From the NCBI GenBank assembly GCA_043805415.1, contig JAZDHZ010000043.1, positions 5,844-69,843 on the forward strand: a stretch of 64,000 nt of DNA, read 5' to 3'. Position 1 is the first letter of the stretch, and every line of letters begins with the position of its first letter. This document shows, one piece after another, positions 21,537 through 37,325 of the stretch. The position numbers and the translations under genes were made by a program. The DNA is from Candidatus Omnitrophota bacterium (lineage in GTDB: Bacteria; Omnitrophota; Gorgyraeia; B26-G9). Below the pieces are notes generated by a model that saw only the letters and a list, made by a program, of their open reading frames with translations, did not search any database and was not told where the DNA came from.

Positions 21537-22607
21537 TTAACCAACTAATTTCTTTTTAAGATTTTCCGGGTCACGCGTAACTTGCATTGCTTCATCAGTG
21601 CCAATAAGCTTACGTTTGAGCAGCTCCTGCAATGCCTGGTCAAGGGTTTGCATGCCTTGTTCCCGGCAGGTTTCAATAACCGAATAGATTTGATAAGTTT
21701 TGCCTTCGCGGATTAAATTTCTGATCGCTGAATTAACCACCATAATTTCCACAACCGGCACCCGTCCTTGTTCATCAGAGGTGATCACCAGTTGCTGGGA
21801 AACAACTGCTTGTAGAGTAATTGAAATCTGAGTGCGGATTTGCTGTTGTTGATGGGGCGGAAACACGTCAATTATTCGATCTATGGTTTGCACCGCGTCA
21901 GTAGTGTGCAAGGTAGCAAGCACCAGATGCCCTGTTTCCGCGGCAGTAATCGCGATGCTGATTGTTTCCAGATCACGCATTTCACCGACTAGGATTACAT
22001 CCGGGTCCTGGCGTAAAGTTTCCCGCAGGGCAAAAGCAAAAGAAGAAGTGTCTTGACCGATTTCCCGCTGGGAAACAAGCGATTTTTTATGTGAATGAAA
22101 ATATTCAATCGGATCTTCAAGCGTAATAATGTGACAACTGCGTTCGGCATTGATTAAATCAACAATCGCCGCTAAGGTAGTTGATTTTCCTGATCCAGTT
22201 GCTCCGGTGACCAAAATAAGTCCCCGTCGTCTGCGGGCAATATCTTTTAAAATCGGAGGCAATCCTAAATCAGAGAAACTTAAAATCTGGTTGGGAATAA
22301 ATCTTAAGGCCAAAGCTATGCTGCTGCGCTGGATATAAAGATTTATCCGAAAGCGGCAGAAAAGGTCACGTTTTTCATTTAAATAAGAATATGAAAAATC
22401 CAGTTCATGCTCTTTTTCAAATTTTTCCCTGCGGCTATCATTTAAAATTTCATAAGTTAAGCGTTTGACTTCATCCGGAGTAAGTTTTTCTTTATCAGTA
22501 AAAAACAATTCACCATTAATCCGTATGGCCGGAGGCGCGCCGGCTACTAAATGTAAATCTGAAGCATGTTTTTCAGTAACTTCATCAATCAGGTCAAAAA
22601 TTGTCAT
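21537..22607 (-). CDS. pilT: type IV pilus retraction ATPase PilT
   Basis: Walker A GATGSGKSTTLAA, Asp box, His box, and PilT-specific AIRNLIREGKTYQI motif; 356 aa. Confidence 0.85.
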   Translation of the reverse strand: MTIFDLIDEVTEKHASDLHLVAGAPPAIRINGELFFTDKEKLTPDEVKRLTYEILNDSRREKFEKEHELDFSYSYLNEKRDLFCRFRINLYIQRSSIALALRFIPNQILSFSDLGLPPILKDIARRRRGLILVTGATGSGKSTTLAAIVDLINAERSCHIITLEDPIEYFHSHKKSLVSQREIGQDTSSFAFALRETLRQDPDVILVGEMRDLETISIAITAAETGHLVLATLHTTDAVQTIDRIIDVFPPHQQQQIRTQISITLQAVVSQQLVITSDEQGRVPVVEIMVVNSAIRNLIREGKTYQIYSVIETCREQGMQTLDQALQELLKRKLIGTDEAMQVTRDPENLKKKLVG

Positions 22608-22618
22608 GGATTGTCTCC

Positions 22619-24208
22619 TTAGAAAAATATAATATCGCTTATCAATACCTTTGTCAAGAAATCGGGAAATTCTAACATTACTATTTTTAATAATTTACCT
22701 ACAGCTTCTTCGGGAATATTTATTACACAAGTATGCCAGCACTCATCAGGTTCCAACGGATATTTTGAATTAGTTTTCACAAAGCTTGTTGGTTTGTCTT
22801 TTTCCGGAAGAGTAAATAGTTTTAAACTAAGTTCAGTGCTTGAGTCTTGGCTGGTTTTTGGATCAAATTCAATTTTGAATCTTAAAAGCAGTCTATGCGG
22901 CAGCTCAAAAGGAGAGACTTTTTTACTGACAATATTAAAATCAGAGATGTAAAACCGATTAGACCCAGAGCTGGCAAGCTTTGTCAGAATCATTCCCGGG
23001 TCTTGAAAAACCACACTAGCTGAAGAAGTCCAGTAACTTTCTTGTCCGCTGGTAAAATTTGCCCGGTATTTTATCATTTTATTTTCCAGAGGAATCATTT
23101 CCTCCCCAAGATCAACAAAACCCAGACTGTCAAGTTCCTCAGGAGAGGGAATATCGCTGCGAATAAGTTTATTCTGTAATTGCTCGGGCTTGACTGATTT
23201 AGTAACCACTTCTAAATCAGATATTATATTTTTTTGATACAGTCTTTGCAGCGCCTGATCCAGGGTCTGCATGCCATCAGCACTGCCGCTTTCAATCGCG
23301 GAGTAAATCTGGTGATATTTTTTTTCCCGAATCATATTTTGAATCCCTTGGGTAGAAAACATGATCTCCAAGGCCGGAACCCGGCCATTGCCGTCATGGC
23401 GCATAACCAATTGCTGACAGATGATTGCTTGTAAAACAACTGATAGTTGTGTTCTGATCTGGTGCTGGGTATTTGACGGAAATGCGCCGATTAAGCGCGT
23501 AATCGTTTGAATGGAGTCAGTGGTTGCCATTGTGCCAAAAACAAGAATACCGGTTTCTGCTGCCTGCAGAGCAATATTAATGGTTTCAATATCGCGCATT
23601 TCGCCAATCATGATAATATCCGCGTCTTGGCGAATTGCTTCTCTTAAGGCGCAAGGGAAGCTGATTGAGTCAGTACCGATCTCTCTTTGGGAAAAAAGCG
23701 CTTTATTCGGCTTAAAAAAATACTCAATCGGATTCTCTAAAGTAATGATATGGCAGCCGCGTTTTTGATTTAAAACATCAAGAATAGCAGCCAGGGTGCT
23801 GGTTTTTCCTGATCCGGACGGGCCGCCGATAATAACCAGGCCTTTTTTTAATTGTGTGATTTTATCAATGTTTTCCGGTAAATTAAGTTCTTTGATTGTC
23901 GGCGTATGTTCAGAAAGCGTGTGAAACACACCATTGGTTAAGCCTTTTTGTTTGTAAAAAGTTACCCGAATCCTGCCAATTGATTCCAGAATATAGGTAA
24001 AATTCACGGAATTATCCAGCTTAAATGTTTTGGCTTGCGTCTCGCTCATCAGCGAAACAGCTAGGGTGTCGATTTGCTCACAATCTAGTTTTGTTGAACT
24101 TTCAGGAATTAACCGTCCGTTAATATTAAATAAAGCAGGCAGGCCGGCACTCAGATGCATGCTGGTGGCTTTTTTTTCCTGCATTGTTTTAACTAATTGT
24201 TTGAGCAT
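22619..24208 (-). CDS. PilT-family ATPase paralog with about 185-aa C-terminal extension of unknown function
   Basis: Core GGPSGSGKTSTLAA Walker A and GIQNMIREKKYHQI motif; extra C-terminal region (aa ~345-529) has no recognisable motifs. Confidence 0.75.
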   Translation of the reverse strand: MLKQLVKTMQEKKATSMHLSAGLPALFNINGRLIPESSTKLDCEQIDTLAVSLMSETQAKTFKLDNSVNFTYILESIGRIRVTFYKQKGLTNGVFHTLSEHTPTIKELNLPENIDKITQLKKGLVIIGGPSGSGKTSTLAAILDVLNQKRGCHIITLENPIEYFFKPNKALFSQREIGTDSISFPCALREAIRQDADIIMIGEMRDIETINIALQAAETGILVFGTMATTDSIQTITRLIGAFPSNTQHQIRTQLSVVLQAIICQQLVMRHDGNGRVPALEIMFSTQGIQNMIREKKYHQIYSAIESGSADGMQTLDQALQRLYQKNIISDLEVVTKSVKPEQLQNKLIRSDIPSPEELDSLGFVDLGEEMIPLENKMIKYRANFTSGQESYWTSSASVVFQDPGMILTKLASSGSNRFYISDFNIVSKKVSPFELPHRLLLRFKIEFDPKTSQDSSTELSLKLFTLPEKDKPTSFVKTNSKYPLEPDECWHTCVINIPEEAVGKLLKIVMLEFPDFLTKVLISDIIFF

Positions 24209-24257
24209 AATATTAATTATTACTTATTTAATTGCCTGTTTACTTATAGTAAAAGGT

Positions 24258-26264
24258 TTAATAATTTTCCTGCCAATTAATAAACGAAATTCCGGCAATA
24301 AAATCCGGAGGAGGATCCGGCACCATTTTTGGCACATAGCGCATATCAAGCTCTTTTCTAAGAAAAATATCATTGGCAACAATGCAGCCTTCAAGCTTGA
24401 AAGTTTCCAGATCAACAATCCCGTTTTCGGAAAATATTATTCCGTCAAAATCCCGATCCCGCGGATCTTCCACACCGGTTTCAGTAATATTGCCATCCTT
24501 GGTAATTAAAGTAGGATATTGCGGCCGCCATCTTCTAAAATAAACTCTGCCGCCGGCAGGAGTTATGACTTCTCCGGCGCGCAAGACCATGGTCTGATAG
24601 CTTTGCGCGCCGGCAAAAAAAGTAATATTAAATATCGAATTATCCATGTCGCGATTGCCCATTCCCCAAGTGAAGTTACGGAAATTATTAATCTGCATAT
24701 CAGCATATTGACCAGGAGCTATAGTGATTGTCGGACTAAAGGAAACAATTTGTCCGTCAGAAGCCCGGCCCGATGGCGGCGGATAACTCCAGTTGGTGGT
24801 AAATCCAGCTTGTCCCTGAACCTGGCTTCTCACTTCTTCATAAGCTCCGAGAAATGAAACCAGGGAAGCCCAGGACGCGGACATCGCGGTTATGGTAATC
24901 GGAGCAGTTGTATTGTTCTTGATTTGAAATTCCACATCACTGTTGGTATTAGCTTGTCTGGTAAGTTCAATATAATCCAGGCCAGAGGGGCGATATTCAT
25001 TGATAATATCGATTCCGCCAACAGCGGTAATCATGCATTGGGGAAAATTAAGATTTTTATAATAAGTATTAATTGTCGCTTTACCAGTTATATAATAACT
25101 TTCCCATAAATAATAAGCAGTGCTGGAAAAATCAAAATCAACAAACTTATCATAGCCATTAAATACAAAGTCGCCGTCAACAAATTTAGTTGCCCGGTTC
25201 CGGTAGGCCAGCATATCAACTGAAGGCATACTGACCAAAGGATCTCCCAAAGAACCCTGAGTAATATCACCGTCAATTTCTAAAGCATCAGCCGCGGGAC
25301 TGGAAGCAAGTCCCACGCTTACTGGATAAAAAGTTGATCCATCAGAAAAAGTCACATTAAAAGTAGTATTATCCATATCGCGGCGCGGATTAGAATTACC
25401 GCTAAGTCTACTGCTAAAAGTTTCTAAACGAATCTCAGCAGTAGCCATATTGGCAATAAACACTGGTTCAGTAAAGTTAACAGTTTCTCCGCTGGCAGCC
25501 CGGTTGCCGCCATTATCATAGAGGTCCCAGACACTTCCATAGTTTGTTCCACTGTACACTCTAACCCGGACTTCACTATAATAAGCAGTTGGGCTAGTCC
25601 AGGTGGCAGTTAATTGAGTAAGATTTAATGTTGCTCCGGTTTCATTAGTAACTTCAAAATTTACATTTGAATTAGAGTTCTGATCTCTGGACCCATCAAC
25701 ATAATACAACCCTGATTTAACCCCTATTCCCAATACTGAATTATTGGCGTGAATATCACCTTCTAAACTGCCTGTAGCAGTATCCGCAAAAGTAATATTA
25801 GTATTAGACATTAAGAGAAATTTCCAGGCGCATAAATAAACAATTGCCTCAGTGGTCCGCTGGGCATTGCCGACATAACCAGTGGAAATAATCCGGACAA
25901 AATCCTCACCAATATCTACTGCCTCAGCAACTGTAACAATGTAATAACCATCAGTCATGTTTTCCTGATATGACCAAGGCATGGTATCAACGTTGGGAGT
26001 TTCGACGATTAAGCGCATTGCCCGGTCAATTCCGGCTTCAGCCACAAAAAAAGCTTTTTCTCCGTTTTCCTGATTGCGGGCAATGCCGCTTTCACTAAGC
26101 ATAGTAGACAGGTAAGTGGTACTAAGCATAAATAGCACTACCATGACAATCAAGGCAAGGAGCAAAGCAATGCCTTTGTCTTGTCTTTTTTTAGATTTAA
26201 TGATTATATTTTTATTTACATTTTGATCTAACATCTTGTCCTTATTAATTAAAATCCTACTCAA
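24258..26264 (-). CDS. large pilus-associated protein with PilX-like N-terminal segment and internal tandem duplication
   Basis: N-terminal KGIALLLALIVMVVLFMLSTTYLSTMLSESGIA resembles PilX_N; two homologous segments (…RRDMDNTTFNVTFSDGSTFYP… vs …NRDMDNSIFNITFFAGAQSYQ…); sits downstream of pseudopilins. Confidence 0.45.
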   Translation of the reverse strand: MSRILINKDKMLDQNVNKNIIIKSKKRQDKGIALLLALIVMVVLFMLSTTYLSTMLSESGIARNQENGEKAFFVAEAGIDRAMRLIVETPNVDTMPWSYQENMTDGYYIVTVAEAVDIGEDFVRIISTGYVGNAQRTTEAIVYLCAWKFLLMSNTNITFADTATGSLEGDIHANNSVLGIGVKSGLYYVDGSRDQNSNSNVNFEVTNETGATLNLTQLTATWTSPTAYYSEVRVRVYSGTNYGSVWDLYDNGGNRAASGETVNFTEPVFIANMATAEIRLETFSSRLSGNSNPRRDMDNTTFNVTFSDGSTFYPVSVGLASSPAADALEIDGDITQGSLGDPLVSMPSVDMLAYRNRATKFVDGDFVFNGYDKFVDFDFSSTAYYLWESYYITGKATINTYYKNLNFPQCMITAVGGIDIINEYRPSGLDYIELTRQANTNSDVEFQIKNNTTAPITITAMSASWASLVSFLGAYEEVRSQVQGQAGFTTNWSYPPPSGRASDGQIVSFSPTITIAPGQYADMQINNFRNFTWGMGNRDMDNSIFNITFFAGAQSYQTMVLRAGEVITPAGGRVYFRRWRPQYPTLITKDGNITETGVEDPRDRDFDGIIFSENGIVDLETFKLEGCIVANDIFLRKELDMRYVPKMVPDPPPDFIAGISFINWQENY

Positions 26265-26273
26265 ATAAACTTA

Positions 26274-26843
26274 TCACATGTTTCTTAGATGAACTGCTTT
26301 GCGCATAGTTGATGTATAATCAGATGCTTTACCGATTTTTTTAATCCGCAGAGTCGCGGTAATAAAAAAAACATTGCCTGGGCTTGTGGTTTCACCGGAA
26401 TGTTTATCATAGTATTTCAGATCCAATAAATCCACATAATTAGCCAAAGGCATACCCGCTGATTCTGAATCAAATTTTCTTAATAAATCCGCGCCAAAGA
26501 TTCCGCTCCAAGTATAGGAGAGGATTTCATTGCTGTCCGCGATTTTATTCTCATTTGTGTCTTGGTACCAAAAACGGATCTGATTAGCTGTTATTGTATA
26601 AAATTCACGGCCATGCTTAATTTCATCACACATTTTATCCAATCCGATCCTGGCGTTTTGAATAACCTCGGTTTTATTTTCTCCGGTTTCCCAAGACAAA
26701 GCGCCTTGACGTAAAAACTCATATATCGGATAAAGCACTAGGGCAAGAATTGCCACAGTGCAGATAAGCTCAACCAAGCTCATGCCTGATTTGTTTAAAT
26801 TTAATTTTGCTGTATTTAATTTTAAGGTATTAAGATTATCCAT
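26274..26843 (-). CDS. prepilin-type N-terminal cleavage/methylation domain protein (minor pilin/pseudopilin)
   Basis: KSGMSLVELICTVAILALV resembles class III signal GFTLIEL + hydrophobic helix. Confidence 0.55.
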   Translation of the reverse strand: MDNLNTLKLNTAKLNLNKSGMSLVELICTVAILALVLYPIYEFLRQGALSWETGENKTEVIQNARIGLDKMCDEIKHGREFYTITANQIRFWYQDTNENKIADSNEILSYTWSGIFGADLLRKFDSESAGMPLANYVDLLDLKYYDKHSGETTSPGNVFFITATLRIKKIGKASDYTSTMRKAVHLRNM

Positions 26844-26854
26844 ACTTAGCTGGT

Positions 26855-27436
26855 CTAATAATGAGACATTATTGTTTCCACGGTTTTGTTATTAATTTTT
26901 GGATGCGCGACTGTAACCACAATACTTTTATAATAAGTTGAAGCTCCAGCTGGTTCCCATGTATTATTATTAATTCGCGTGTATTTTACTTTTACGCTTC
27001 TGGTAAAGTCCTTGAAATCAGTTAACACAATGCCGTCAATAGTTTTGGGCGGTTTGCTGCTCCAGTTATTGTAATCATCAATATCATCAAAAGTAGAGCG
27101 GTTATTCGGATCTTCGCCAAAATCAGTGCCCAAAGCTCCCAAACTGACTGGTTCATCAGGAAACTCATTCTCATCAAATCGCTTACCTTTGATTTCTTCG
27201 ATTAAATCATCAGCTAAATCAGTGGCTTGGGTAACTATTTCCGCATTAATATTGCCTTGAAATCCAATATAAAATTGAGATAAGAGAGGGATTAGAGCCA
27301 AGGCCAGAATCATTACTGCCATCAGCACCTCAATATAAGAAAACCCCGCTTGAGCAGATACTCTTGCGAGGTTGGGAAAAAGCGAATAAACTAAATATCG
27401 TATTTGTCTTATTGCTAGCTTAGCTAAGCGTATCAT
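26855..27436 (-). CDS. prepilin-type N-terminal domain protein (minor pilin/pseudopilin)
   Basis: AGFSYIEVLMAVMILALALIPLL prepilin-like motif after a 25-aa leader. Confidence 0.55.
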   Translation of the reverse strand: MIRLAKLAIRQIRYLVYSLFPNLARVSAQAGFSYIEVLMAVMILALALIPLLSQFYIGFQGNINAEIVTQATDLADDLIEEIKGKRFDENEFPDEPVSLGALGTDFGEDPNNRSTFDDIDDYNNWSSKPPKTIDGIVLTDFKDFTRSVKVKYTRINNNTWEPAGASTYYKSIVVTVAHPKINNKTVETIMSHY

Positions 27437-27696: not shown

Positions 27697-28161
27697 ATGC
27701 TTGATTTTTTTCCTGCGGTCCGGAAAAATTTTGGGTTTAGTTTGATTGAGCTGCTGATTGTTATTTCGATTATCGGAGTAATGTCTTTATTAGGGATTCC
27801 GCTGTTTAAGGATTATGTGCAATTTTCAGCTTTAAAAAGCGATGCTTGGAAGGTGGTTTCGGATTTTCGTTCATACCGACAACTGGCGATTATTGAGCAT
27901 TGCAATTATCGGTTTGTATTTGATCTAAACAGCGATTCATATAAAATAGAGCAAAGGGATTCCGGAACCAATGCTTTAATTGCAACCATTGCCACCAGAA
28001 CACTTAGCAATGATATTACCCAAGCTGTGGATACTACTTTTATGCCTAAGGGCCAGGCTGATCCAGCAGCAACGATACTGATAAAAGGGAAGAATTCAGC
28101 AGACAAAGTAACGATCACGGTGTTCGCGACTACTGGTTTGTCAAAAATGACTGGGCCATAA
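27697..28161 (+). CDS. type IV pilin (prepilin with class III signal)
   Basis: FGFSLIELLIVISIIGVMS canonical prepilin cleavage/methylation motif (G-F-x-x-x-E) followed by hydrophobic alpha1 helix; 154 aa. Confidence 0.7.
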   Translation: MLDFFPAVRKNFGFSLIELLIVISIIGVMSLLGIPLFKDYVQFSALKSDAWKVVSDFRSYRQLAIIEHCNYRFVFDLNSDSYKIEQRDSGTNALIATIATRTLSNDITQAVDTTFMPKGQADPAATILIKGKNSADKVTITVFATTGLSKMTGP

Positions 28162-28167: not shown

Positions 28168-29763
28168 ATGCTACCTAAAATCAAACAAATTAAAGGCAAT
28201 TTAGATCAGGAAATCAATCTTTTTGAGCCAGGACAAAAACTGGTGAGTATTGATATTGGTTCTGAATTGATTAAGCTGGTGGTGCTTAAAGAAGCGCCGA
28301 TCGGCACGCGTTTGATCACTCTGGCTTGTGTGGAAATTCCCCCAGCAGCTGACGCGGAAACACCAGAAGACGCGAACAAAAGAATAAACTCTGCTTTAAA
28401 AAAAGCAATTAGCCAGCTAAGCACCCCAATTAAAAAAGTAAATACAATTATTATTACTCCGTCTTTAAATATTAAAAATATCAGTTTGCCTTTGATGCCG
28501 GATGAAGAATTAAAAGAATCGGTTAAATGGGAAATGGAACAGAATATTACTTATCCTATTGATACCGCTACCGTAGATTTTTTAATTGCCGGAGAAACTA
28601 TCCGTTCAGGAGCCAAGAATCTAGAATTAGAAGTTGTGGCAGCGCAGAATGAAGAGATCAATCAGTTTATCCAGAAATATACGGATAATAAATTGATAGT
28701 AAGCTCGATTAATATCCCGGCTTTTTGTCTTTGGAATACATTTCAAAAATCGAATCAATGGAAAGAAGATGACACAATCGCTTTGGTTGATATTGGCGCC
28801 AGCTCTACAAAAATATGCATTTTTACTAATAATATCCTTAAATTCACCCGGGAAATATTTTTTGGCAGCAAGACAATTACCGCTGCTTTGCAAAAAGATA
28901 ATAATCTTGCTTACGCGGAAGCGGAAAATCTTAAGATCAGGTATGGCTTAACTGAGTCTGCGACTTATTATCAAAGTGTGGCTGATTCGCTTAAAGAACT
29001 GACTGGCCAGATGAATCGATCCTTTGGTTATTATAAAGCCCAATTTCATATTGAACGTGTTGATCGGCTAATTGTTTATGGCGGCACCTCAAAAATGATT
29101 AATTTAGACAAATTTCTTAGTGAAGAACTAGGGATATTTGCTGAAATCGGTAAACCGTTCAATGGTTTATTGTTTAATCAAAAGGCGTTTGAAAATCTTG
29201 ATGATTTCGCGGCTTTTTTCGGCATGGCTATTGGCGCTGCCATGACCAGCGGAAATGCCAAACGAATAAATCTTTTACCTGCTGAACTGCGTAAAGACAA
29301 GACCGTGGGCATGAAAAAAGCTTTGTTTAAGATTATTCCATTACTAATAATCTTTGCTCTGTTTTTCATATACATCAGATTGATCGATACAGAAAAAAAA
29401 CTTACGCGGGAAAAAGTAGCAAAAGAATTAATAATCAGCACTTGGAAAGAACAGCAGGAGTATGAAAGAAAACTAAAATTTCTAAAGTCATTGCCTGACG
29501 CGCAGGATTCATGGATTAAGATTTTTCGGGGAGTCAGTGAGATTATTCCCGAAGGGGTTTGGCTTGACTCAATTACGATTGAAGAGAAAAACAAAAAAAT
29601 TGTTTTAAAAGGCGCCGGACAGACGAATATCATTGTTATGGAACTTGTCCGCAAGCTGGAATCATTGCCTTATTTCAGCAATGTGAGGCTTGAGTCTGTT
29701 GAAGAAAAAGGCGATGAAAAAGCGCCTACGACTTATTTTAAAATAACCATCGGGAAAAAATAA
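28168..29763 (+). CDS. type IV pilus assembly PilM-PilN fusion protein
   Basis: N-terminal actin-like PilM (VSIDIGSELIKLVVL, IDIGASSTKICIF) followed by INLLPAELRKDK + TM helix characteristic of the PilN N-terminus. Confidence 0.7.
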   Translation: MLPKIKQIKGNLDQEINLFEPGQKLVSIDIGSELIKLVVLKEAPIGTRLITLACVEIPPAADAETPEDANKRINSALKKAISQLSTPIKKVNTIIITPSLNIKNISLPLMPDEELKESVKWEMEQNITYPIDTATVDFLIAGETIRSGAKNLELEVVAAQNEEINQFIQKYTDNKLIVSSINIPAFCLWNTFQKSNQWKEDDTIALVDIGASSTKICIFTNNILKFTREIFFGSKTITAALQKDNNLAYAEAENLKIRYGLTESATYYQSVADSLKELTGQMNRSFGYYKAQFHIERVDRLIVYGGTSKMINLDKFLSEELGIFAEIGKPFNGLLFNQKAFENLDDFAAFFGMAIGAAMTSGNAKRINLLPAELRKDKTVGMKKALFKIIPLLIIFALFFIYIRLIDTEKKLTREKVAKELIISTWKEQQEYERKLKFLKSLPDAQDSWIKIFRGVSEIIPEGVWLDSITIEEKNKKIVLKGAGQTNIIVMELVRKLESLPYFSNVRLESVEEKGDEKAPTTYFKITIGKK

Positions 29764-29765
29764 AT

Positions 29766-30332
29766 ATGGATATGCCGTCAATCAGGTTGCCCAATATTCA
29801 GACAAAGTATAAGGTGATAGCCGCTATTGGAATAATTGCCTTGGTTTTCGGCTATTATTATGATCATGCTTATAAGCCGCACGCGAAAAAAATTGAGGAT
29901 TTACAATCAGAATTGCTTACGTTGGAAGATACTTTGAAAATCATTAAAACTTTAGAATATCCTGATGTTAAAACTGATCAAGCGATCTTAAGTAAGATTC
30001 AAATTAAAAAGAATTCATTCCTTTCCCAAATCGACGGGCATGAAAGTAAACTTGCTAATAAAAATCAGTTTTCTAAAATTCTTGAGCAAATAACGCGTCT
30101 TTCTTATGATGTGGGTTTTGATATAAAAGCCTTAGAGCCCAAAGAGTTTACCTTGAAGCAGGATTATAACAGCATGTATTTAAACATGGAGGTGAATTCC
30201 CGGTTTCAAAACTTGCTTGATTTTCTTGAGCGTTTAAAAGAACTTCCGGTTTTCCCGGAAAGTATTTATATTGATATCAGGGAAAGACCGAATTTAGGCA
30301 TTAGACTTAATCTTTCAATCCTGGCTAGGTAG
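29766..30332 (+). CDS. PilO-like pilus assembly protein
   Basis: N-terminal TM, coiled-coil then alpha/beta domain; position after PilMN. Confidence 0.5.
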   Translation: MDMPSIRLPNIQTKYKVIAAIGIIALVFGYYYDHAYKPHAKKIEDLQSELLTLEDTLKIIKTLEYPDVKTDQAILSKIQIKKNSFLSQIDGHESKLANKNQFSKILEQITRLSYDVGFDIKALEPKEFTLKQDYNSMYLNMEVNSRFQNLLDFLERLKELPVFPESIYIDIRERPNLGIRLNLSILAR

Positions 30333-30336
30333 GAAA

Positions 30337-30867
30337 ATGAATAAAATAGCGAAAAATAAAAATCAGATTCTTGAAGTTCTGAACCGGCTTGCCGCAAAGC
30401 GTTTTTCGAATAATGAAAAAATCGCTTTGATTATTATTTTTATTATTATCGGTTTAATCGGTAATTATTATTTTAACAATTGGATTGCCGCTTTAAAAAG
30501 TAAAAATAGTGTGGTTATTCCTATATCGCCGCCGATTATTCCCAAATTGCCTGATCCGCTTATTATAAAACCAGTAAAATTTGAAGAACCGATTTTTCCG
30601 GAAATAAATACTCCGACACTGCGCGATCCATTTCTCTCATCTAAAAATCCGCAAGAACTGAAAACTATTGTCACCAAAAAACCTTCGGTGGAATTAAAAC
30701 TCAGCGGGATTCTCTGGGATGACAAGATCCCCTCGGCAATCATAAACTCAAGTATTGTAAAAATCGGGGATTTGATTGAAGGCAAAACAGTAGTTGACAT
30801 AGAAAAGAACCAGGTAGTTGTGATGGAAGACGGCAAAATTCTTATCCTGGAACTTAGAAAACAATAA
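30337..30867 (+). CDS. hypothetical membrane-anchored pilus-operon protein (PilP-like?)
   Basis: TM helix then Pro-rich linker and beta-rich C-terminus; last gene of pilMNO block. Confidence 0.3.
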   Translation: MNKIAKNKNQILEVLNRLAAKRFSNNEKIALIIIFIIIGLIGNYYFNNWIAALKSKNSVVIPISPPIIPKLPDPLIIKPVKFEEPIFPEINTPTLRDPFLSSKNPQELKTIVTKKPSVELKLSGILWDDKIPSAIINSSIVKIGDLIEGKTVVDIEKNQVVVMEDGKILILELRKQ

Positions 30868-30945
30868 ATTTTTTTCCCGGGATTGGTTCGGCTTTTCATC
30901 TCAGGATATTAATATTTAAAAAAATCTTAAATTATTCTTATAATT

Positions 30946-32130
30946 ATGGAAACAAAACAAAAAAAAATCCGTGTGCTGCATTTAATTACCCGCATGATTG
31001 TGGGCGGAGCCCAGGAAAACACACTATTAACTGTTGTCGGCTTAAATAAAATAGCGGATTATGAGCTCACGCTGTTAACCGGACCTTCTTTAGGCCCAGA
31101 AGGAGCTTTGCTCAATAACCAGACCAGTGGTTTTAAGCTGGAGGTCTGTCCATTTCTAATAAGGAATATTAACCCGATTTTTGATTTAATCGCGTTTTGG
31201 AAAATATATTGGTTTATTAAAAAAAACAAAATCGATATTGTCCATACGCACAGCTCAAAAGCCGGAATCTTGGGCCGTGTTGCCGCAAAATTAGCCAAGG
31301 TTCCGATCATTATTCACACAATTCATGGTTTGCCGTTTTTTGCCGAGCAGAATAATTTAATTAATAAAATCTATATTTTTCTCGAGAAAGCAGCCGCCAG
31401 GTTTACGGACGCGATAATCTGCGTGTCTCAATCAATTATTGATGAAGCGGTGCAAGCCCATATTGCTAAAAAAGAAAAATTTGTAAAAATTTACAGCGGC
31501 ATTGACCTGACTCATTATCATTCGGATGAGCAGATTCGGCAGGCTTATAGAAAAAGACTGTCAATTCCTGAAGACAGTCTGGTGGTAGGGAAATTAGCAC
31601 GCTTATTTAATTTAAAAGGCCATAATTTTCTCTTGGAAGCAGCAGTGATTGTTAAACAAAAATTCCCGAATCTTAAACTCTTATTTATCGGCGATGGGAT
31701 TTTAAAAAAACAATTAGAACAAAAAGCAAAGAAACTCGGGCTTGAGGATTGCCTAATTTTAACGCGTTTAATCCGGCCGGAAGCAGTACCTTATTATCTG
31801 CAGTGTGTGGATGTTTTAGCGCATGTATCTTTGCATGAAGGCTTACCTAGGGCAGTTGTTCAGGGCTTTGCCTTGGAAATTCCAGCGGTTTGTTTTGATT
31901 TAGATGGAGCCAAGGATATTATTCGCAATGGAGTTAATGGTATCTTGGTCAGCCCGAAAAATGTTCCGGAACTGGCAAAAGCCTTGTCTAAACTGCTTGG
32001 CGATAAAGCGCTGCGACGGCAAATGGGTGAGCAAGGTAAAAAAATTGTCCAGGATGCTTTTGACAGCCAAACAATGGTTTTGGCAATTGATTTTGTTTAT
32101 CGAAGATTATTAAAATCATGTGGAAATTAA
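30946..32130 (+). CDS. GT4-family glycosyltransferase
   Basis: EGLPRAVVQGFALEIPAVCFDLDGAKDIIRNGVNGILV matches the GT-B C-terminal E-x7-E region of GT4 enzymes. Confidence 0.75.
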   Translation: METKQKKIRVLHLITRMIVGGAQENTLLTVVGLNKIADYELTLLTGPSLGPEGALLNNQTSGFKLEVCPFLIRNINPIFDLIAFWKIYWFIKKNKIDIVHTHSSKAGILGRVAAKLAKVPIIIHTIHGLPFFAEQNNLINKIYIFLEKAAARFTDAIICVSQSIIDEAVQAHIAKKEKFVKIYSGIDLTHYHSDEQIRQAYRKRLSIPEDSLVVGKLARLFNLKGHNFLLEAAVIVKQKFPNLKLLFIGDGILKKQLEQKAKKLGLEDCLILTRLIRPEAVPYYLQCVDVLAHVSLHEGLPRAVVQGFALEIPAVCFDLDGAKDIIRNGVNGILVSPKNVPELAKALSKLLGDKALRRQMGEQGKKIVQDAFDSQTMVLAIDFVYRRLLKSCGN

Positions 32131-33191
32131 TTTATAGCTATATTTTTATTTTTAGTTTATTTGCTTCCTTGGTCCTGGTAAGCGCTTTTCGCCGCCTGGC
32201 TATCCGCTGGCAGGTTGTTGATCTGCCCCAGGCGCAGAGAAAAATTCATACCCAGTCCACGCCGCTTTTAGGCGGAGCAGCAATGTACGCGGCATTTACT
32301 TTAACCATTGGCCTGAATCTGCTCCTGATTTATTTTTTCTTTGCCAAAGGAATGCTTCCTGAATACATCACTGTGTATCTAGCCGGGATAAAATTAATTA
32401 CACTCCAGCTGAGCGCGATTCTAGGCACAACTTTTGTTTTAGTGCTTATGGGAATTTATGATGATATTAAAGGCCTTGGCGCTAAAACTAAATTAGGCAT
32501 TGAAATAATCCTGGCCAGCATTGTTTTTTTCAGCGGAATCAAAATCAGCTTATTTATCCATAATCCGTTTATTTGCTGGCTGATTACGGTTTTATGGATT
32601 GTCGGGATCAGCAATGCTTTTAATTTACTTGATAATATGGATGGCTTGAGCAGCGGGATTGCTTTAATCTCCAGCATTATATTTTTTCTGGTTGCTGTGT
32701 CTGGCCACCATTTTTTTGTGGCCACGATTCTGGCTTGTTTTTCCGGAGTAATGCTCGGGTTTTTATGGTTTAATTTTCCGCCGGCCAAGGTATTTATGGG
32801 TGATGCCGGCAGTTTATTCATTGGCTATACTTTGAGCCTGCTGACAATCATCAATACTTATTATACCCATTCCGCGCCAACTATCGCGCCGGTAATCATG
32901 CCTTTATTAATCATGGCTGTGCCGATTTTTGATACCTTGTCCGTGATCCGCATCCGTTTAAAAAATAAAGTATCGATTTTTCAGGCTGATAAAAATCATC
33001 TTTCGCACCGCCTGATGCAGCGGGGAATGAGCGTAAAACAGACATTGTTTTTTATTTATCTGTTAAGTTTCGCCATTGGACTGGGCGGATTATTGCTTAC
33101 TGCTTTAAACGCGCAGGGATGTTATCTAGTTTTAATTCAGGCAATCTGCATTATTTTAATCATTGCTATTTTAGAAGGGAATAAACAATGA
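32118..33191 (+). CDS. polyprenyl-phosphate N-acetylhexosamine-1-phosphate transferase (WecA/MraY family)
   Basis: NAFNLLDNMDGL and FMGDAGSLFIGY motifs diagnostic of MraY/WecA superfamily; about 10 TM helices. Confidence 0.8.
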   Translation: MWKLIYSYIFIFSLFASLVLVSAFRRLAIRWQVVDLPQAQRKIHTQSTPLLGGAAMYAAFTLTIGLNLLLIYFFFAKGMLPEYITVYLAGIKLITLQLSAILGTTFVLVLMGIYDDIKGLGAKTKLGIEIILASIVFFSGIKISLFIHNPFICWLITVLWIVGISNAFNLLDNMDGLSSGIALISSIIFFLVAVSGHHFFVATILACFSGVMLGFLWFNFPPAKVFMGDAGSLFIGYTLSLLTIINTYYTHSAPTIAPVIMPLLIMAVPIFDTLSVIRIRLKNKVSIFQADKNHLSHRLMQRGMSVKQTLFFIYLLSFAIGLGGLLLTALNAQGCYLVLIQAICIILIIAILEGNKQ

Positions 33192-35140
33192 TCCGGCTGA
33201 TCTTGGCAATGCTTGTCATAGTCTTATGCTGCTTTTGGCTGGTCTGGCGAAGATTCGACAAAAATATTCCCAATGCCGTACGCTTAATTATTATTTCAAC
33301 CTGCGGGCTTTTTTTCTTAAGAACCATAATCGGTGAAACTTATTTATTTTCCGCTCAGCTGATTTTTCAGGTATTGATTTTTTTTCTTGGTTTTGTTTAT
33401 CTTTTATACCTCTGCATCGGCAAACAACAGCTCGCTAATCAGCCGGTTTGCTTTAGCTTGAATTTATTTGATAAATTATTTTTTCTGTTTATAAGTTTTT
33501 TAACCATAAGCGTTTGGTTTTCGGTTAATAAAGAAGCGAGTATTGCCACGCTGGTTTATTTTTCCTCGCTGTATGTCTGGTATTGGCTGATTGCCAATCT
33601 GCCGCAAGCCAAAAGCATTAACCGGATTTTTCAAGCCATAATTTTTCTTGCCTGCGGTTTATTGATCAGCTATGGTTTTTATCAATATCATATTGGTTTT
33701 CAAACCATGCGCGAGTTTTTAGCTAAAAACCCGGAGTATATGATCCAATCCCGGGAATTTATCCGCAGGATGCAGTCAAACGTTGTATTCGCGACTTTTA
33801 TTTATGCCCCGGCATTTGGCAGCTATTTGACCATGATGTTTTTAACTATCCTGGGATTTTGTTTTGCCCAAGGCAATCTGTTTCAGCCGGCATTTAAACT
33901 GCGATTATGTTTAAAATATGTGCTGCTTTTATTAATCATTCCTTTACTGATTTTAACCAAAGCCAAAGCAGCCTGGCTGGGTTTAGGCATTGGCCTGATT
34001 TGTTTTTTTCTGCTGATTAAACCTAAAACCAGGCAAAAAGGTTTTCTGATCGGAACGCTGCTTAGTTTACTGGGATTATTTACCCTAAGTTTTATCTTGA
34101 TCAGCAGTTCTGATAAAATTCATTTACCCAAACTGGAAAATTTTCTGGTTTCTTTTAAGGTAAGACTGGAATACTGGAAGGCAGCTTTTGCTATGATCAA
34201 ACAGCGGCCTTTGCTTGGCTTTGGCCCTGGAACATTCGGCAGCGTGTATCCTTTGTTTAAAACCCTTAATGCTGAAGAAACAATTATGTGCCACAATAGT
34301 TTTCTTCAGATCTGGGCAGAGGGAGGCAGTTTTGTATTTCTGGCTTTTTGTTTATTTTGGCTGAGCTTTATCCAGCAGGCAATAAGCAGGATTAAAAAGA
34401 TCTTTGGAGCCAGCCGGTTTATCAGTGCTGGCTTATTCTCCGCTATCTTAAGTTTCTTATTTGTCAATCTGCTTGATTTCAGCTTATATGACGGACAAAC
34501 TGCTTTGATTGGTTTTGGGCTTATCGGCTTATTGCAGTATCAGCTTAACTCTGAGCCAAAACTCAATACTGAACATATGCCTAAGCGCAAACTGCATAAA
34601 CTGCTGATTATTTGTATTGGCTGTTTATTTTTAACTTGTGTTCTGGGTTATTCAGGTTTAGTTTATTGCGCGCGGATTTTTGATGATAAAGCTTCTTTTG
34701 AATATAAAAATGCCAGGCTTGAACAGGCATTAGCTTATACCAATAAAGCCATTGGTTTACAGGGGTTTAGCGGAAAATATTATTATCATAAAGGGATTAT
34801 TCTGGAAAAAATGATTTTAAATCCTAAAATCAGCCCTGAGCAGAAAAAGGAATTATTAAACCAGGCAGTTAAAAATTTTGAGCAGGCAGTAAAATTGGAC
34901 TGGTTTATGCCGCATTATCATTATAAATTAGCCACGGTTTTATATTATTTAAATCAGCCGGAAGCTAAACAGCGCGCAGGCAGAGAATTTGAACAAGCCG
35001 CTGCTTTATATCCGGTAAATCCGTTTTATCACGAGCAGCTTGCCGAGTTTTATAATATAAACGGCAAAATTGGTGACGCGCAGAAACAGCAGGCAATTGC
35101 CGCGGAAATGAAAAAATATTTTAAAACCGGAACAAGATAA
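33188..35140 (+). CDS. Wzy_C/O-antigen ligase-family protein with C-terminal TPR repeats (candidate O-oligosaccharyltransferase)
   Basis: Polytopic membrane domain with GFGPGTFGSVYP...HNSFLQIWAEGG Wzy_C signature; C-terminal TPR-like helices. Confidence 0.65.
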   Translation: MIRLILAMLVIVLCCFWLVWRRFDKNIPNAVRLIIISTCGLFFLRTIIGETYLFSAQLIFQVLIFFLGFVYLLYLCIGKQQLANQPVCFSLNLFDKLFFLFISFLTISVWFSVNKEASIATLVYFSSLYVWYWLIANLPQAKSINRIFQAIIFLACGLLISYGFYQYHIGFQTMREFLAKNPEYMIQSREFIRRMQSNVVFATFIYAPAFGSYLTMMFLTILGFCFAQGNLFQPAFKLRLCLKYVLLLLIIPLLILTKAKAAWLGLGIGLICFFLLIKPKTRQKGFLIGTLLSLLGLFTLSFILISSSDKIHLPKLENFLVSFKVRLEYWKAAFAMIKQRPLLGFGPGTFGSVYPLFKTLNAEETIMCHNSFLQIWAEGGSFVFLAFCLFWLSFIQQAISRIKKIFGASRFISAGLFSAILSFLFVNLLDFSLYDGQTALIGFGLIGLLQYQLNSEPKLNTEHMPKRKLHKLLIICIGCLFLTCVLGYSGLVYCARIFDDKASFEYKNARLEQALAYTNKAIGLQGFSGKYYYHKGIILEKMILNPKISPEQKKELLNQAVKNFEQAVKLDWFMPHYHYKLATVLYYLNQPEAKQRAGREFEQAAALYPVNPFYHEQLAEFYNINGKIGDAQKQQAIAAEMKKYFKTGTR

Positions 35141-35197
35141 AGAGCAGTCACAGGTCACAAGACACAAGGTCACAAGCTGCAAGGTCAAATGGCTAAA

Positions 35198-35285
35198 CAG
35201 GGGATTGCTTTTTTGTTGTAATGACGGACAGAAAACTTTGCTTCGAGTAGGGCAAAGCTAAAATAAATAGTCGCTGTCCCTATTT
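35198..35285 (+). repeat. 88-bp structured repeat, copy 1 (nested hairpins GGACAG..CTGTCC and CTTTGC..GCAAAG)
   Basis: Near-identical to 36716-36803 (2-3 mismatches). Confidence 0.6.
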
Positions 35286-35301
35286 TTACTAAAGAGAACC
35301 A

Positions 35302-36057
35302 ATGGGTATATTTGATTTTTTTGTTAAGAAGAAAAAATTTAATCCTGATGGAAAAGTTGCTTGCAAGACTTGCGGTAATATGATTTTACCTATTACAGCC
35401 AATCTCACGGATAATCGATGTAGGCCTTGTTTTAATGCAGTACGCAGAAAACCGCCTTTTGTTGGTGCTTTTCACGATGGATTGGCTACAATTGAACTTG
35501 ACTATAGCGCTCCCAAAGGATTTGTGAATAAAGATAATGTTATTGTGATCAAGCCACGATTTCCTAGGGCATCTAATTTTAGCGAGGGTTTGGCTTGTGT
35601 CTGTGATCCTGAATCATACAAGTATGGATATATTGATAAAAAGGGAAATTATATTATCAAACCCCAGTTTAAAACTGCCGGCGATTTTCATGAGGGACTG
35701 GCTGCGTTTACGCTTGGAGGAACTGAATCTTGGTGCGGGCAGCTTTGGGGATTCATTAATCAGCAAGGTAATGTGGTAATTAAACCAATATATCGTTTTA
35801 ATTCTCCTGATTACACCCCTTATTTTAGCGAGGGGCTGGCGGTAGTTGCCCTAGATTTTCACCTCGGAGAAGCAATACCGGAAATAGATATGGATGTCAT
35901 TGATAGATGGGACCTTGTTTATATTGATAAAAAAGGAGATATTCTTATTCCCGGACCATTTAAAAAAGCATCTGCCTTTAAAAATGGAGTAGCCGAAGTA
36001 GTTATCAAAGGGCGTAATACTACTATTCGTAAAGATGGTTCTATCCAAGAGCAATAA
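35302..36057 (+). CDS. Zn-ribbon + WG-repeat (PF14903-like) protein
   Basis: N-terminal CKTCGN...CRPC zinc ribbon; repeated YIDKKGNYIIKPQF / WGFINQQGNVVIKPIY / YIDKKGDILIP WG-repeat units. Confidence 0.55.
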   Translation: MGIFDFFVKKKKFNPDGKVACKTCGNMILPITANLTDNRCRPCFNAVRRKPPFVGAFHDGLATIELDYSAPKGFVNKDNVIVIKPRFPRASNFSEGLACVCDPESYKYGYIDKKGNYIIKPQFKTAGDFHEGLAAFTLGGTESWCGQLWGFINQQGNVVIKPIYRFNSPDYTPYFSEGLAVVALDFHLGEAIPEIDMDVIDRWDLVYIDKKGDILIPGPFKKASAFKNGVAEVVIKGRNTTIRKDGSIQEQ

Positions 36058-36803: not shown

Positions 36804-36887
36804 TTGAAAAAGTAGACAATCCCTTCATACAATGGTAAGATATCGATAATCTTAGCGCAATTAATAATATTATAAAGGAGGAAAACA

Positions 36888-37325
36888 ATGGCAAATATAC
36901 TGGTAATTCATGGGCCGAATTTAAATCTTTTAGGCGAAAGAGAGCCGGATATCTACGGTAAGGTGACTCTGGAAACTATAAATAATAATATTTTAAAATG
37001 GGCAAAGAAAAATGGTGTTAAGATCGATATCATCCAATCAAATCATGAAGGTGAAATTGTCGATATAATCGGCAAAGCCAATTCCACTTATAATGCTTTA
37101 CTGATCAATCCCGCGGCTTATACTCATACCAGCGTGGCGATCCGCGACGCGATCAGCGCTGTGGGCATTCCTACAGTGGAAGTACATTTATCAAATATCT
37201 ATGCCCGGGAAGAATTCCGGCATACTTCTTTAATCGCACCGGTCAGTTCCGGTCAGGTATCAGGATTTGGTCAGCATAGTTATATTTTGGGATTAGAAGC
37301 GATATTAACGATTATAAACAAATAG
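36888..37325 (+). CDS. aroQ: 3-dehydroquinate dehydratase, type II
   Basis: [22 protein letters not shown]-terminal signature; 145 aa. Confidence 0.85.

Follow-up and report, generated by a model that had tools for sequence, protein, structure and literature searches.

Glycan-assembly genes that lie close behind type IV pilus genes raise the question of what their products glycosylate. In the 64-kb window analysed here (the whole stretch of DNA, taken from a Candidatus Omnitrophota MAG), such an arrangement led the sequence-only reading to propose that a short lipid-linked glycan is transferred to the neighbouring 154-aa pilin or to other surface proteins. The compact three-gene run on which that proposal was built is borne out: three ORFs (GT4, a WecA/MraY-type initiating transferase and Wzy_C-TPR) lie exactly at 30946-35140, with a 13-nt overlap between the GT4 stop and the WecA-like start and a 4-nt overlap (ATGA) between the WecA-like stop and the Wzy_C start, and the three genes are translationally coupled. 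The distance of about 80 bp from the pilMNO block also agrees with the 78 nt that we find after PilMN-PilO-p176.

30868..30945, + strand: 78-nt spacer that separates the trio from the pilus-assembly block; it contains a weak hairpin and, as a promoter-like element, TTTAAA-18-TATAAT
30946..32130, + strand: GT4-family (GT-B) glycosyltransferase, 394 aa (PF00534 and PF13439)
32118..33191, + strand: polyprenyl-phosphate HexNAc-1-phosphate transferase (WecA/MraY superfamily), 357 aa (PF00953)
33188..35140, + strand: Wzy_C/O-antigen-ligase-superfamily membrane enzyme with a C-terminal TPR domain, 650 aa

The analysis turned up no strong terminator, and co-transcription of the trio with the PilMN-PilO-p176 block is possible; the unaligned upstream sequences of orthologues, inspected by eye, showed no obvious conservation of the spacer. 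The shared strand, the short distance and the lack of a strong terminator would all suit a system dedicated to O-glycosylation of this pilus's own pilins, analogous to TfpO/PilO, TfpM or PglS, and the identity of the pilus genes bears directly on that reading.

21537..27436, - strand: divergent pilus genes (PilT-like ATPase, 529-aa T2SSE ATPase, 668-aa PilX_N/GspK-like protein, 189-aa prepilin, 193-aa PilV-like protein)
27558-27586 (- strand) and 27612-27641 (+ strand): strong divergent promoter-like sites
27697..28161, + strand: GspH/FimU/FimT-type minor pilin, 154 aa, with an N_methyl motif (context rather than a demonstrated part of the module)
28168..29763, + strand: PilM-PilN fusion, 531 aa (PilM_2 E 5e-37, PilN 1e-14)
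29766..30332, + strand: PilO, 188 aa (PilO E 6e-7)
within the 28168..30867 block, 3' of PilO, + strand: p176, 176 aa, in the PilP position

p176 matches nothing in Pfam, NCBIfam or the PDB, and the protein in its position in locus L079 gives weak T2SSB/CdsD_C matches. The 154-aa protein matches the NCBIfam models GspH and ComGD, both weakly; PF12019 (GspH) is likewise weak, in 7/8 of its orthologues, a homologue carries the JGI name 'FimT', and its AF2 model (pLDDT 88) matches EpsH (2qv8), FimU (4ipu) and XcpH (9a1e). It is a GspH/FimU-type minor pilin and not a demonstrated major pilin, which counts against a dedicated pilin system, as does a search of the 64 kb for prepilin motifs, in which this protein and the 189-aa prepilin ORF were the only hits. 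The Wzy_C enzyme does resemble TfpO/PilO and TfpM (Pseudomonas 1244, Acinetobacter, Moraxella) in residing within a pilus gene neighbourhood; however, those enzymes are 420-470 aa long, are encoded immediately 3' of the gene for their cognate pilin, which they modify at a C-terminal Ser/Thr (PMC9829042), whereas the Omnitrophota enzyme has 650 aa with a TPR domain, follows three non-pilin and two glycan-synthesis genes, and is accompanied by pilin-like proteins (the 154-aa protein included) in which no conserved C-terminal Ser/Thr was found.

Comparison of related loci separates the trio from the pilus more clearly. The arrangement of pilus block and trio is kept in nine species-level loci (the window, L001, L008, L003, L010, L011, L012, L016 and L079), and in L001 and L008 the two remain together even where aroQ has been lost from downstream, both of which favour a pilus-dedicated role. 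Against this, the trio outlives the pilus block: it is intact in L005/L009, where the pilus genes have decayed (PilT cut to 62 aa, PilB gone, PilX split and six other pilus genes missing), and it is intact in L015 (with Memo directly 5' of the GT4 gene) and L080, where the block is absent, its catalytic residues being conserved in all of these loci. Similarly, no pilus genes lie beside the WecA-Wzy_C-TPR pairs or lone Wzy_C-TPR genes of L082, L083 and L055. Since it persists intact where the pilus block has decayed or is absent, the trio reads best as an autonomous envelope module, widely conserved and only sometimes beside pilus genes, and its adjacency to pilMNO is a juxtaposition in a subset of lineages only. 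Downstream of Wzy_C-TPR genes, the neighbour most widely kept is aroQ, which a 1.5-kb insertion separates from the trio in the window.

36888..37325, + strand: aroQ, type II dehydroquinase (PF01220 E 5e-59)

Wzy_C-TPR is followed by aroQ or pepP-efp in L003, L005, L010, L012-L017, L055, L078-L080 and L082-L084; the deepest-conserved neighbours are aroQ/pepP-efp-accBC and not pilus genes, and the depth of linkage declines from Wzy_C-TPR with aroQ/pepP-efp through WecA and then GT4 to the pilus genes. The pilMNOPQ genes are commonly found beside aro genes with no functional link, and local synteny is therefore weak evidence. In Elusimicrobia, pilMNOPQ-Wzy_C (L036, L039, L073) and, on the short contig L066, pilQ-Wzy_C occur independently; this adjacency speaks for pilus dedication and leaves a pilus or protein link plausible. 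Nonetheless, because the trio is independent, conserved and only sometimes near pilus genes, a dedicated pilin-glycosylation role is improbable.

The first two enzymes of the trio are consistent with assembly of a glycan on undecaprenyl pyrophosphate (Und-PP). The WecA-like protein matches Pfam PF00953 (Glycos_transf_4, E 2.5e-35) and the NCBIfam WecA model TIGR02380 (E 4.2e-35; 121.5 bits, under the 326-bit cutoff), and its family would make it the initiating enzyme. The GT4 protein matches Glycos_transf_1 (PF00534, E 1.4e-34) and Glyco_transf_4 (PF13439, E 2.1e-21), with TIGR03088 stp2 as its best NCBIfam match (E 1.9e-44, under cutoff), and is predicted to extend the Und-PP-linked primer by a second sugar. 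In most orthologous loci its gene directly precedes the one for the WecA-like protein, and it adjoins Wzy_C-TPR in candidate division FCPU426, and the coupling of WecA to Wzy_C-TPR is kept even in distant relatives (L080, L081, L082).

The third protein scores 74.3 bits against Pfam Wzy_C (cutoff 31.7), and a 100%-identical protein is named 'O-antigen ligase family protein [Candidatus Omnitrophota bacterium]' at NCBI. Its AlphaFold (AF2) model (pLDDT 83, pTM 0.85) shares the GT-C_B-type membrane fold of Cupriavidus metallidurans WaaL (PDB 7TPG; CAZy GT121), which at TM 0.60 is the sole membrane-domain match, and the only PDB relative by both structure and sequence, among the 50 fold matches listed by Foldseek.

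33923..34351, + strand: catalytic periplasmic-loop region (Pfam Wzy_C, residues 246-388), with K258/K260, R326 and H369
34718..35113, + strand: TPR domain (residues ~511-642, ~3.5 repeats), predicted periplasmic

All 17 orthologues have K260, R326 and H369 (K258 is nearly invariant, >=90%); these three align with R191, R265 and H313 of WaaL, residues to which Und-PP binding and, for the His, acceptor activation are ascribed (PMC10920833). R326 and H369 are also kept in pilus-less L015 and in distant homologues, and L015, L017, L013, L055 and L020, but not L036, have Lys or Arg at the first basic position. Because it retains the basic residues for Und-PP binding and the His that activates the acceptor, the protein is, to judge from its sequence, of the ligase/oligosaccharyltransferase type, as the sequence-only reading had supposed, and not of the polymerase type.

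The same residues bear on the possibility of a Wzy-type polymerase that joins Und-PP repeat units into exopolysaccharide or capsule, with the TPR domain as a scaffold for export, on the model of PelB, BcsC and AlgK. Wzy_C domains are common to polymerases, TPR scaffolds are frequent in polysaccharide export (cited in PMC2943079), VpsP is matched weakly by 9/17 orthologues, and in L080 there is an Alginate_exp gene 5.5 kb upstream. However, clan GT-C1 polymerases have Asp or Glu at the position of the invariant His (PMC10920833), the module holds one elongating glycosyltransferase only, and no Wzx, Wzz/Wzc or Wza/OPX gene was found among the window ORFs scanned against Pfam, leaving polymerization very improbable. 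The best curated model, IctB (TIGR00947, cyanobacteria), also matched weakly in 17/17 orthologues, might be counted on the polymerase side; the match in the window protein spans residues 40-450, almost the whole membrane domain, yet scores ~40 bits against a 366-bit cutoff, and IctB has no TPR domain. To our knowledge, the true function of IctB is itself unknown.

The C-terminal TPR array is weak as a single-sequence Pfam match (TPR_17, E 3e-4) but is confirmed as genuine by the family profile (E 1.8e-18 against consensus-TPR structures), by TPR matches in 16/17 orthologues and by seven modelled helices at residues 511-642; in Foldseek the region matches consensus TPR proteins (TM 0.79-0.91 over ~147 residues) and the TPR region of OGT (~151 residues covered). 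With 14 TM helices and K/R-rich loops on the cytoplasmic side (positive-inside), the C-terminus is predicted to lie outside, placing the TPR domain in the periplasm.

In our best reading, the trio builds a short Und-PP-linked glycan, which is then ligated en bloc on the periplasmic side of the inner membrane. The WecA-like enzyme would transfer HexNAc-1-phosphate to Und-P, GT4 would add at least one further sugar on the cytoplasmic side, and a flippase encoded elsewhere would carry the product across the membrane (no flippase gene was found among the 64-kb ORFs scanned against Pfam). By alignment with WaaL, K260 and R326 of Wzy_C-TPR would hold the Und-PP while H369 activates a hydroxyl acceptor to receive the glycan, and the TPR domain would most likely serve to bring in the acceptor or a partner protein. 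A coherent module that transfers a short lipid-linked glycan en bloc is supported, whereas one dedicated to the pilus, or to the 154-aa protein, is not.

It has been reported that sequence cannot separate WaaL from O-oligosaccharyltransferases (O-OTases) (PMC3643930). We tentatively favour general protein O-glycosylation, with periplasmic or surface proteins as targets and type IV pilins as possible, non-exclusive substrates. This preference follows from the C-terminal TPR motifs that a review attributes to PglL and the predicted S-layer O-OTase WsfB (PMC2943079), from the frequent location of PglL homologues beside pilin genes (21/31 cases; PMC3643930), from Wzy_C genes beside pilus genes in two phyla (Omnitrophota and Elusimicrobia), and from a TMEM260-like GT-C gene adjoining the FCPU426 homologue together with the absence of flanking waa or rfb genes in the 64 kb. 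The enzyme resembles PglL (the general O-OTase of Neisseria, Acinetobacter and Burkholderia) in its Wzy_C domain, its conserved Arg and His and its size class (550-600 aa against 650); unlike PglL, it belongs to another phylum and any glycoprotein product of it is putative, and the comparison with PglL suggested by the sequence-only reading turned up no PglL_A signature (PF15864) in 17/17 orthologues even at E<=10. That absence, the lack of any match to curated O-OTase models and the lack of a flippase near the trio count against the reading we favour. WsfB (Paenibacillus alvei), likened here by description only, shares Wzy_C with a C-terminal TPR motif and is encoded with glycan-synthesis genes (PMC2943079), although its context is a Gram-positive S-layer.

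A WaaL-type ligase is a substantial, if somewhat doubtful, possibility: the WecA/GT4-built unit would be attached to lipid A-core or another lipid or glycan, as a short conserved O-unit or LOS cap, and partners in LPS assembly or export would be docked by the TPR domain. Beyond the fold, the residues and the NCBI name, multidomain O-antigen ligases such as WadA are known (PMC10920833), and a core LPS function is fitted equally well by the fixed, housekeeping-like position of Wzy_C-TPR beside aroQ, pepP, efp and accBC with or without pilus genes, by conserved GmhA-like and RfaE-II-like (heptose-1-P adenylyltransferase-like) genes 6.7 kb downstream of the trio, and by LptF/LptG 6-8 kb from the L083 homologue. 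However, the similarity to WaaL is remote (family profile E 1e-4 against 7TPG, ~14% identity in the structural alignment, Lys replacing the first Arg), with none detected to E. coli WaaL by hhalign, and WaaL has 12 TM helices in ~400 aa (PMC10920833), whereas the Omnitrophota enzyme carries an extra ~180-residue segment comprising the 14th TM helix and the TPR domain. Nor is its gene part of a waa or rfb cluster: no gene for a heptosyltransferase, a Kdo transferase, Wzx or Wzz, and no rfb gene, was found in the 64 kb, and the combination of firm clustering with WaaL and an adjacent rfb cluster, which the sequence-only reading had named as evidence against itself, was not found. In other Omnitrophota, an O-antigen ligase is reported from within variable polysaccharide cassettes (bioRxiv 10.64898/2026.05.20.726742), which suggests that some other gene may encode the canonical WaaL. 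With neither pilus dedication nor a WaaL-rfb association supported, we therefore leave the acceptor between protein and lipid A-core. Clustered at 50% identity, the Wzy_C-TPR family numbers 574 representatives with E<=1e-30.

The compact three-gene run at 30946-35140 proposed by the sequence-only reading is borne out by the ORF map, in which all three reading frames lie on one strand at the coordinates which that reading gave, and by matches to Pfam and NCBIfam families:

30946-32130, plus strand, GT4 glycosyltransferase of 394 aa (Glycos_transf_1, E 1.4e-34; Glyco_transf_4, E 2.1e-21)
32118-33191, plus strand, WecA/MraY-type enzyme of 357 aa (PF00953, E 2.5e-35; NCBIfam WecA model, E 4e-35, below cutoff)
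33188-35140, plus strand, Wzy_C-TPR protein of 650 aa (Wzy_C, 74.3 bits, residues 246-388; weak TPR_17 match)

The genes of this trio are translationally coupled, with overlaps of 13 nt and then 4 nt, and 78 nt separate GT4 from the gene preceding it. On the same strand and 5' of the trio lie genes for a 154-aa prepilin-type protein, a PilM-PilN fusion (PilMN), PilO, and a 176-aa protein (p176) at the PilP position; divergent genes on the opposite strand encode a PilV-like protein, a 189-aa prepilin, a 668-aa PilX_N/GspK-like protein, and two T2SSE ATPases. The 3' flank carries a WG-repeat gene and a gene for a 136-aa protein, then aroQ, pepP, efp, accB, and accC, and, past accC, two Asp23 genes, a GmhA-like SIS gene, and a cytidylyltransferase-like gene. 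The WecA-like protein exceeds the gathering score of Glycos_transf_4 (PF00953; 122.3 bits vs. 27) and falls short of the NCBIfam trusted cutoff of the UDP-GlcNAc-specific WecA equivalog TIGR02380 (121.5 bits vs. 326). We call p176 PilP-like because of its position and a weak T2SSB match at one homologous locus in another genome (L079), and nothing else; its family profile retrieved no match from the PDB, and the protein contains a linker rich in Pro/Ser/Thr. PilM and PilN are fused as one 531-aa protein (28168-29763) in the window and in all orthologous Omnitrophota loci, and are encoded by separate genes in Elusimicrobia. The spacer 5' of GT4 holds only weak sites in consensus scans, and inspection of the unaligned sequences from 11 loci revealed no obviously conserved promoter or terminator. 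At the homologous locus L014, where the pilus-operon spacer is absent 5' of GT4, the ~130 nt preceding the GT4 start (~230-361) form a degenerate tandem repeat of TTCTGTT/GCCTGTT units.

An NCBI protein with 100% identity to the 650-aa product is named [quoted passage not shown], and the match to Wzy_C (PF04932), well above the gathering score at 74.3 vs. 31.7 bits, is shared by 17/17 orthologues, which align over their full length at 39-68% identity. An AlphaFold (AF2) model based on this alignment (pLDDT 83, pTM 0.85) predicts a multi-TM fold resembling WaaL, a large periplasmic loop included, and of the 50 fold matches listed, only the WaaL structure from Cupriavidus metallidurans (7TPG, TM 0.60) is a membrane protein. 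With the family profile, 7TPG scored E 0.0035 and consensus-TPR structures E 1.8e-18; when the profile was restricted to the membrane domain, 7TPG scored E 1e-4. A phmmer search of the PDB with the membrane domain as a single sequence gave no match, 7TPG being reached by the family profile only, and hhalign found no meaningful alignment between the family profile and Escherichia coli K-12 WaaL. PglL-type general O-OTases modify Ser/Thr at internal sequons in multiple proteins. PglL_A (PF15864), the motif that tells PglL from WaaL (PMC3643930), was absent from all 17 orthologues at E<=10, as were Wzy_C_2 and O-antigen_lig. When the 17 orthologues were compared with the NCBIfam and Pfam models for WaaL, PglL, PEP-CTERM ligases, and polymerases, the only matches were to TPR families and, far below threshold in NCBIfam, to IctB (17/17) and VpsP (9/17); the protein thus falls into no curated subfamily.

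Alignment of the membrane-domain profile with 7TPG pairs K260, R326, and H369, all invariant in the 17-orthologue alignment, with WaaL R191, R265, and H313, the first basic position being Lys in Wzy_C-TPR vs. Arg in WaaL. In WaaL, two Arg bind the Und-PP phosphates and His activates the acceptor, whereas in Wzy-type polymerases of the same clan this His is replaced by Asp or Glu (PMC10920833). The predicted signature of two basic residues and a His, not Asp/Glu, is that of O-Lig (GT121-type) enzymes, which argues for a ligase/oligosaccharyltransferase-type rather than a polymerase-type enzyme. We dropped a Wzy polymerase identity on account of the His in place of the acidic residue and regard polymerase activity as highly improbable.

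Residues ~511-642 of the model resemble both consensus TPR proteins and the TPR region of OGT. The K/R-rich loops between the 14 TM helices alternate as expected; the catalytic loop, periplasmic by homology, is followed by three TM helices and a K/R-rich cytoplasmic linker (residues 454-467), and because one more TM helix lies past this linker, the TPR domain is predicted to be periplasmic. Literature searches on Wzy_C+TPR proteins and on Omnitrophota pilin glycosylation gave no direct precedent; C-terminal TPR domains have reported precedents in PglL and in the predicted O-OTase WsfB (PMC2943079). An exhaustive HMM search at E<=1e-30 retrieved 574 representatives (50%-identity clusters) of the Wzy_C-TPR family, many of which are full length, and this uncharacterised architecture is hence widely distributed. 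The enzyme is a new, divergent Wzy_C ligase/OTase whose TPR fusion is found in many uncultivated lineages.

The relation of the trio to the pilus genes was traced by a scan of species-representative genomes, contig look-ups, and tblastn mapping of the window proteins. The pilus block adjoins the trio in the window and at L001/L007, L008, L003/L004, L010, L011, L012, L016, and L079 (homologous loci in other genomes). At L005 and L009, the trio is intact (391, 361, and 631 aa) and the pilus block has decayed: in L005 4640-6518, and identically in L009, PilT is reduced to its last 62 residues and PilX lies in two frames without its N-terminal 106 residues; PilB, two minor pilins, the FimU-like gene, PilMN, PilO, and p176 are missing; and the Memo/AMMECR1 gene flanking the decayed cluster is intact. 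At L015, GT4 comes straight after Memo/AMMECR1, the 7.7 kb 5' of the trio being free of pilus genes, and the Wzy_C-TPR protein of this locus keeps R326, H369, and a basic residue at the K260 position. Further arrangements include GT4-epimerase-WecA-Wzy_C-TPR-pepP-efp without pilus genes (L080), methyltransferase-WecA-Wzy_C-TPR-aroQ (L082), WecA-Wzy_C-TPR (L081), GT2-Wzy_C-TPR-aroQ-pepP-efp-accBC on an Armatimonadota-labelled contig (L055), and epimerase-GT4-Wzy_C-TPR-TMEM260-like in candidate division FCPU426 (L020). In Maf-Wzy_C-TPR-aroQ (L083, on a 272-kb contig) and Wzy_C-TPR-aroQ (L084), no WecA, GT4, or pilus genes adjoin Wzy_C-TPR. The pilus genes and trio are retained and the aroQ neighbour is lost at L001 and L008. 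Since the trio occurs without the pilus block at some loci and without aroQ at others, the trio, with the WecA/Wzy_C-TPR pair as its core, is the constant element of the locus and both flanks vary; the module is independent of the pilus genes. Either aroQ or pepP-efp lies directly 3' of Wzy_C-TPR genes in very divergent lineages (L055, L078-L080, L082-L084; the corresponding stretch of the window is 33188-37325), including cases without WecA, GT4, and pilus genes, and no functional reason for this lasting Wzy_C-TPR/aroQ adjacency is apparent.

Whichever acceptor the enzyme uses, pilMNO adjacency is not evidence of pilin glycosylation, because Wzy_C-TPR stays by aroQ/efp where the pilus genes have decayed. 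A link to the pilus is kept alive as an idea by Elusimicrobia, three species of which (L036, L039, L073) carry a TPR-less Wzy_C gene directly after pilM-N-O-(P)-Q, as does a short contig (L066) directly after pilQ. In these loci (L036 4585-17892; L039, L073, L066), a 486-aa Wzy_C protein is encoded ~10-80 bp past pilQ (secretin), followed by unassigned large proteins of 780 and 622 aa, an LPG_synthase_TM protein, a methyltransferase, and a GT4; two loci of related Elusimicrobia with the same glyco-module (L021, L022) gave no PilQ match in the 1.9-2.9 kb available upstream. The gene order of characterised systems speaks against pilus dedication: TfpO/PilO and TfpM genes lie immediately downstream of the cognate pilin gene, whereas 5.0 kb and five genes (PilMN, PilO, p176, GT4, WecA) separate Wzy_C-TPR from the nearest pilin-like gene. 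TfpO and TfpM are also proteins of 420-470 aa without extra domains, unlike the 650-aa Wzy_C-TPR with its TPR region, and their systems need a pilin C-terminal Ser/Thr acceptor (PMC9829042). We consider a pilus-dedicated role improbable.

The 154-aa protein, which the sequence-only reading took for the pilin, is instead a minor pilin of the GspH/FimU type. It combines a prepilin N-terminus (N_methyl motif) with a GspH-type beta-sheet globular domain; its NCBIfam matches to GspH and ComGD are both weak, Pfam GspH is matched below threshold by 7/8 orthologues, and among its homologues, one is called FimT by JGI and another carries PF12019. Its AlphaFold model, computed from an alignment of database homologues (pLDDT 88), matches EpsH (2qv8; E 1.3e-4, TM 0.70), FimU (4ipu), and XcpH (9a1e) and no major pilin, and we dropped the major-pilin assignment. 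It joins the PilV-like, 189-aa, and PilX/GspK-like proteins in a set of minor pilins; when the 64 kb were scanned for prepilin motifs, no ORF was picked up besides those of the 154-aa protein and the 189-aa prepilin. The orthologues share no terminal Ser/Thr of the TfpO/TfpM type, their C-termini (...MTGP, ...MVTN, ...MVTP, ...RMRE, ...MVSP, ...KISS) varying in the last residue. The divergent region between the PilV-like (minus) and FimU-like (plus) genes (27437-27696) contains two near-consensus promoter-like sites, TTGACA-18-TAAAAT at 27612-27641 (plus) and TTGACA-17-TAAAAT at 27586-27558 (minus), each with 11/12 positions and an extended TG.

Judging from the enzyme families, the WecA-like enzyme would make Und-PP-HexNAc, the GT4 would extend it, a flippase (not found among the window ORFs scanned against Pfam) would move the lipid-linked glycan across the membrane, and Wzy_C-TPR would transfer the glycan en bloc in the periplasm. 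We hypothesize, tentatively and with somewhat less than even confidence, that the acceptors are periplasmic or surface proteins and that the enzyme is a putative OTase of general protein O-glycosylation, because of the periplasmic TPR domain and its precedents in WsfB and PglL (PMC2943079), the recurrence of pilus genes beside Wzy_C genes in two phyla, a compact pathway made up of a primer enzyme and one GT, the lack of waa or rfb neighbours, and the report of an O-antigen ligase in variable polysaccharide cassettes of other Omnitrophota. The sequence-only reading, in which a short lipid-linked glycan is passed to the 154-aa pilin or other surface proteins, is hence partly right in its biochemistry and probably wrong in its specific target and in its dedication to the pilus.

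Putative WaaL-type ligation of the glycan to lipid A-core is a serious if somewhat doubtful alternative. WaaL is the only structural relative among the fold matches listed, the genomic position is fixed and housekeeping-like, heptose-pathway genes are nearby, and LptF/G genes lie near the L083 homologue; sequence alone does not separate WaaL from O-OTases (PMC3643930). WaaL genes, however, are embedded among LPS core (waa) or O-antigen (rfb) genes or flanked by them, and the trio is not: among the ORFs of the 64 kb scanned against Pfam, none was found for a GT9 heptosyltransferase, a Kdo transferase, Wzx, or Wzz, and the GmhA-like and RfaE-II-like genes, 6.7 kb downstream, are the sole such LPS-related genes. 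We dropped the idea that these two genes prove a role in LPS, because ten genes lie between them and the trio, among them the widely syntenic aroQ-pepP-efp-accBC and Asp23 genes. WaaL is moreover a protein of ~400 aa with 12 TM helices and no accessory domain, whereas Wzy_C-TPR has 650 aa, 14 predicted TM helices, and a predicted periplasmic TPR domain.

Omnitrophota are uncultivated, mostly nano-sized bacteria, ultra-small and possibly host-dependent, and we know of no experimental work on their surface chemistry. If the enzyme glycosylates proteins, it would stand for a new branch of O-oligosaccharyltransferases guided by a TPR domain and might serve as a glycoengineering tool; if it is the WaaL of the phylum, the final step of LPS assembly would be identified, with an enzyme bearing an unusual periplasmic TPR domain. 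A more far-reaching form of the protein-glycosylation reading, possible but rather unlikely, is that Wzy_C-TPR proteins form a previously unrecognised, widely distributed O-OTase class in which the TPR domain would select protein acceptors and the coupled WecA-like enzyme would supply a dedicated short glycan, for general glycosylation of surface proteins in Omnitrophota, including the type IV pilus that they use. Such a class would be distinct from PglL, TfpO, TfpM, and PglS, and its acceptor-selecting TPR would have analogues in the TPR-bearing eukaryotic OGT and TMTC enzymes.

Several other features of the window and its relatives deserve mention. An 87-nt direct repeat, 99% identical between its copies at 35199-35285 and 36716-36802, brackets two genes whose products both start with CxxC...CxxC motifs:

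35302-36057, WG_beta_rep protein
36170-36580, 136-aa protein

As Wzy_C-TPR and aroQ are only ~25-50 bp apart in orthologous loci, this two-gene block is a lineage-specific 1.5-kb insertion, in which intergenic, terminator-like sequence has been duplicated. The GmhA-like SIS_2 gene and the gene for a 160-aa cytidylyltransferase-like (RfaE domain II-like) protein (41870-42936) overlap by 4 nt and occupy the same position in L003 and L005, suggesting nucleotide-heptose synthesis for the LPS core or another glycan. In L020, GT4-Wzy_C-TPR is followed by a gene (11362-13377) for a 671-aa TMEM260-like (protein O-mannosyltransferase-like, GT-C) protein, which may hint that the Wzy_C-TPR family belongs to a protein-glycosylation context. 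A 1740-aa ORF in the window (6205-11427) has marginal, partial Pfam matches and no confident family, and unassigned ORFs of 1410 and >1649 aa lie immediately 3' of Wzy_C-TPR at L001; such very large proteins without an assignment seem to be frequent in these genomes. Outside the pilus cluster and right after dnaE (50472-53906), a gene at 53921-55315 encodes a 464-aa protein in which an N-terminal PilZ domain is fused to a T2SSE (PilB/GspE-type) ATPase; this protein may be an ATPase of secretion or of a pilus that responds to c-di-GMP.
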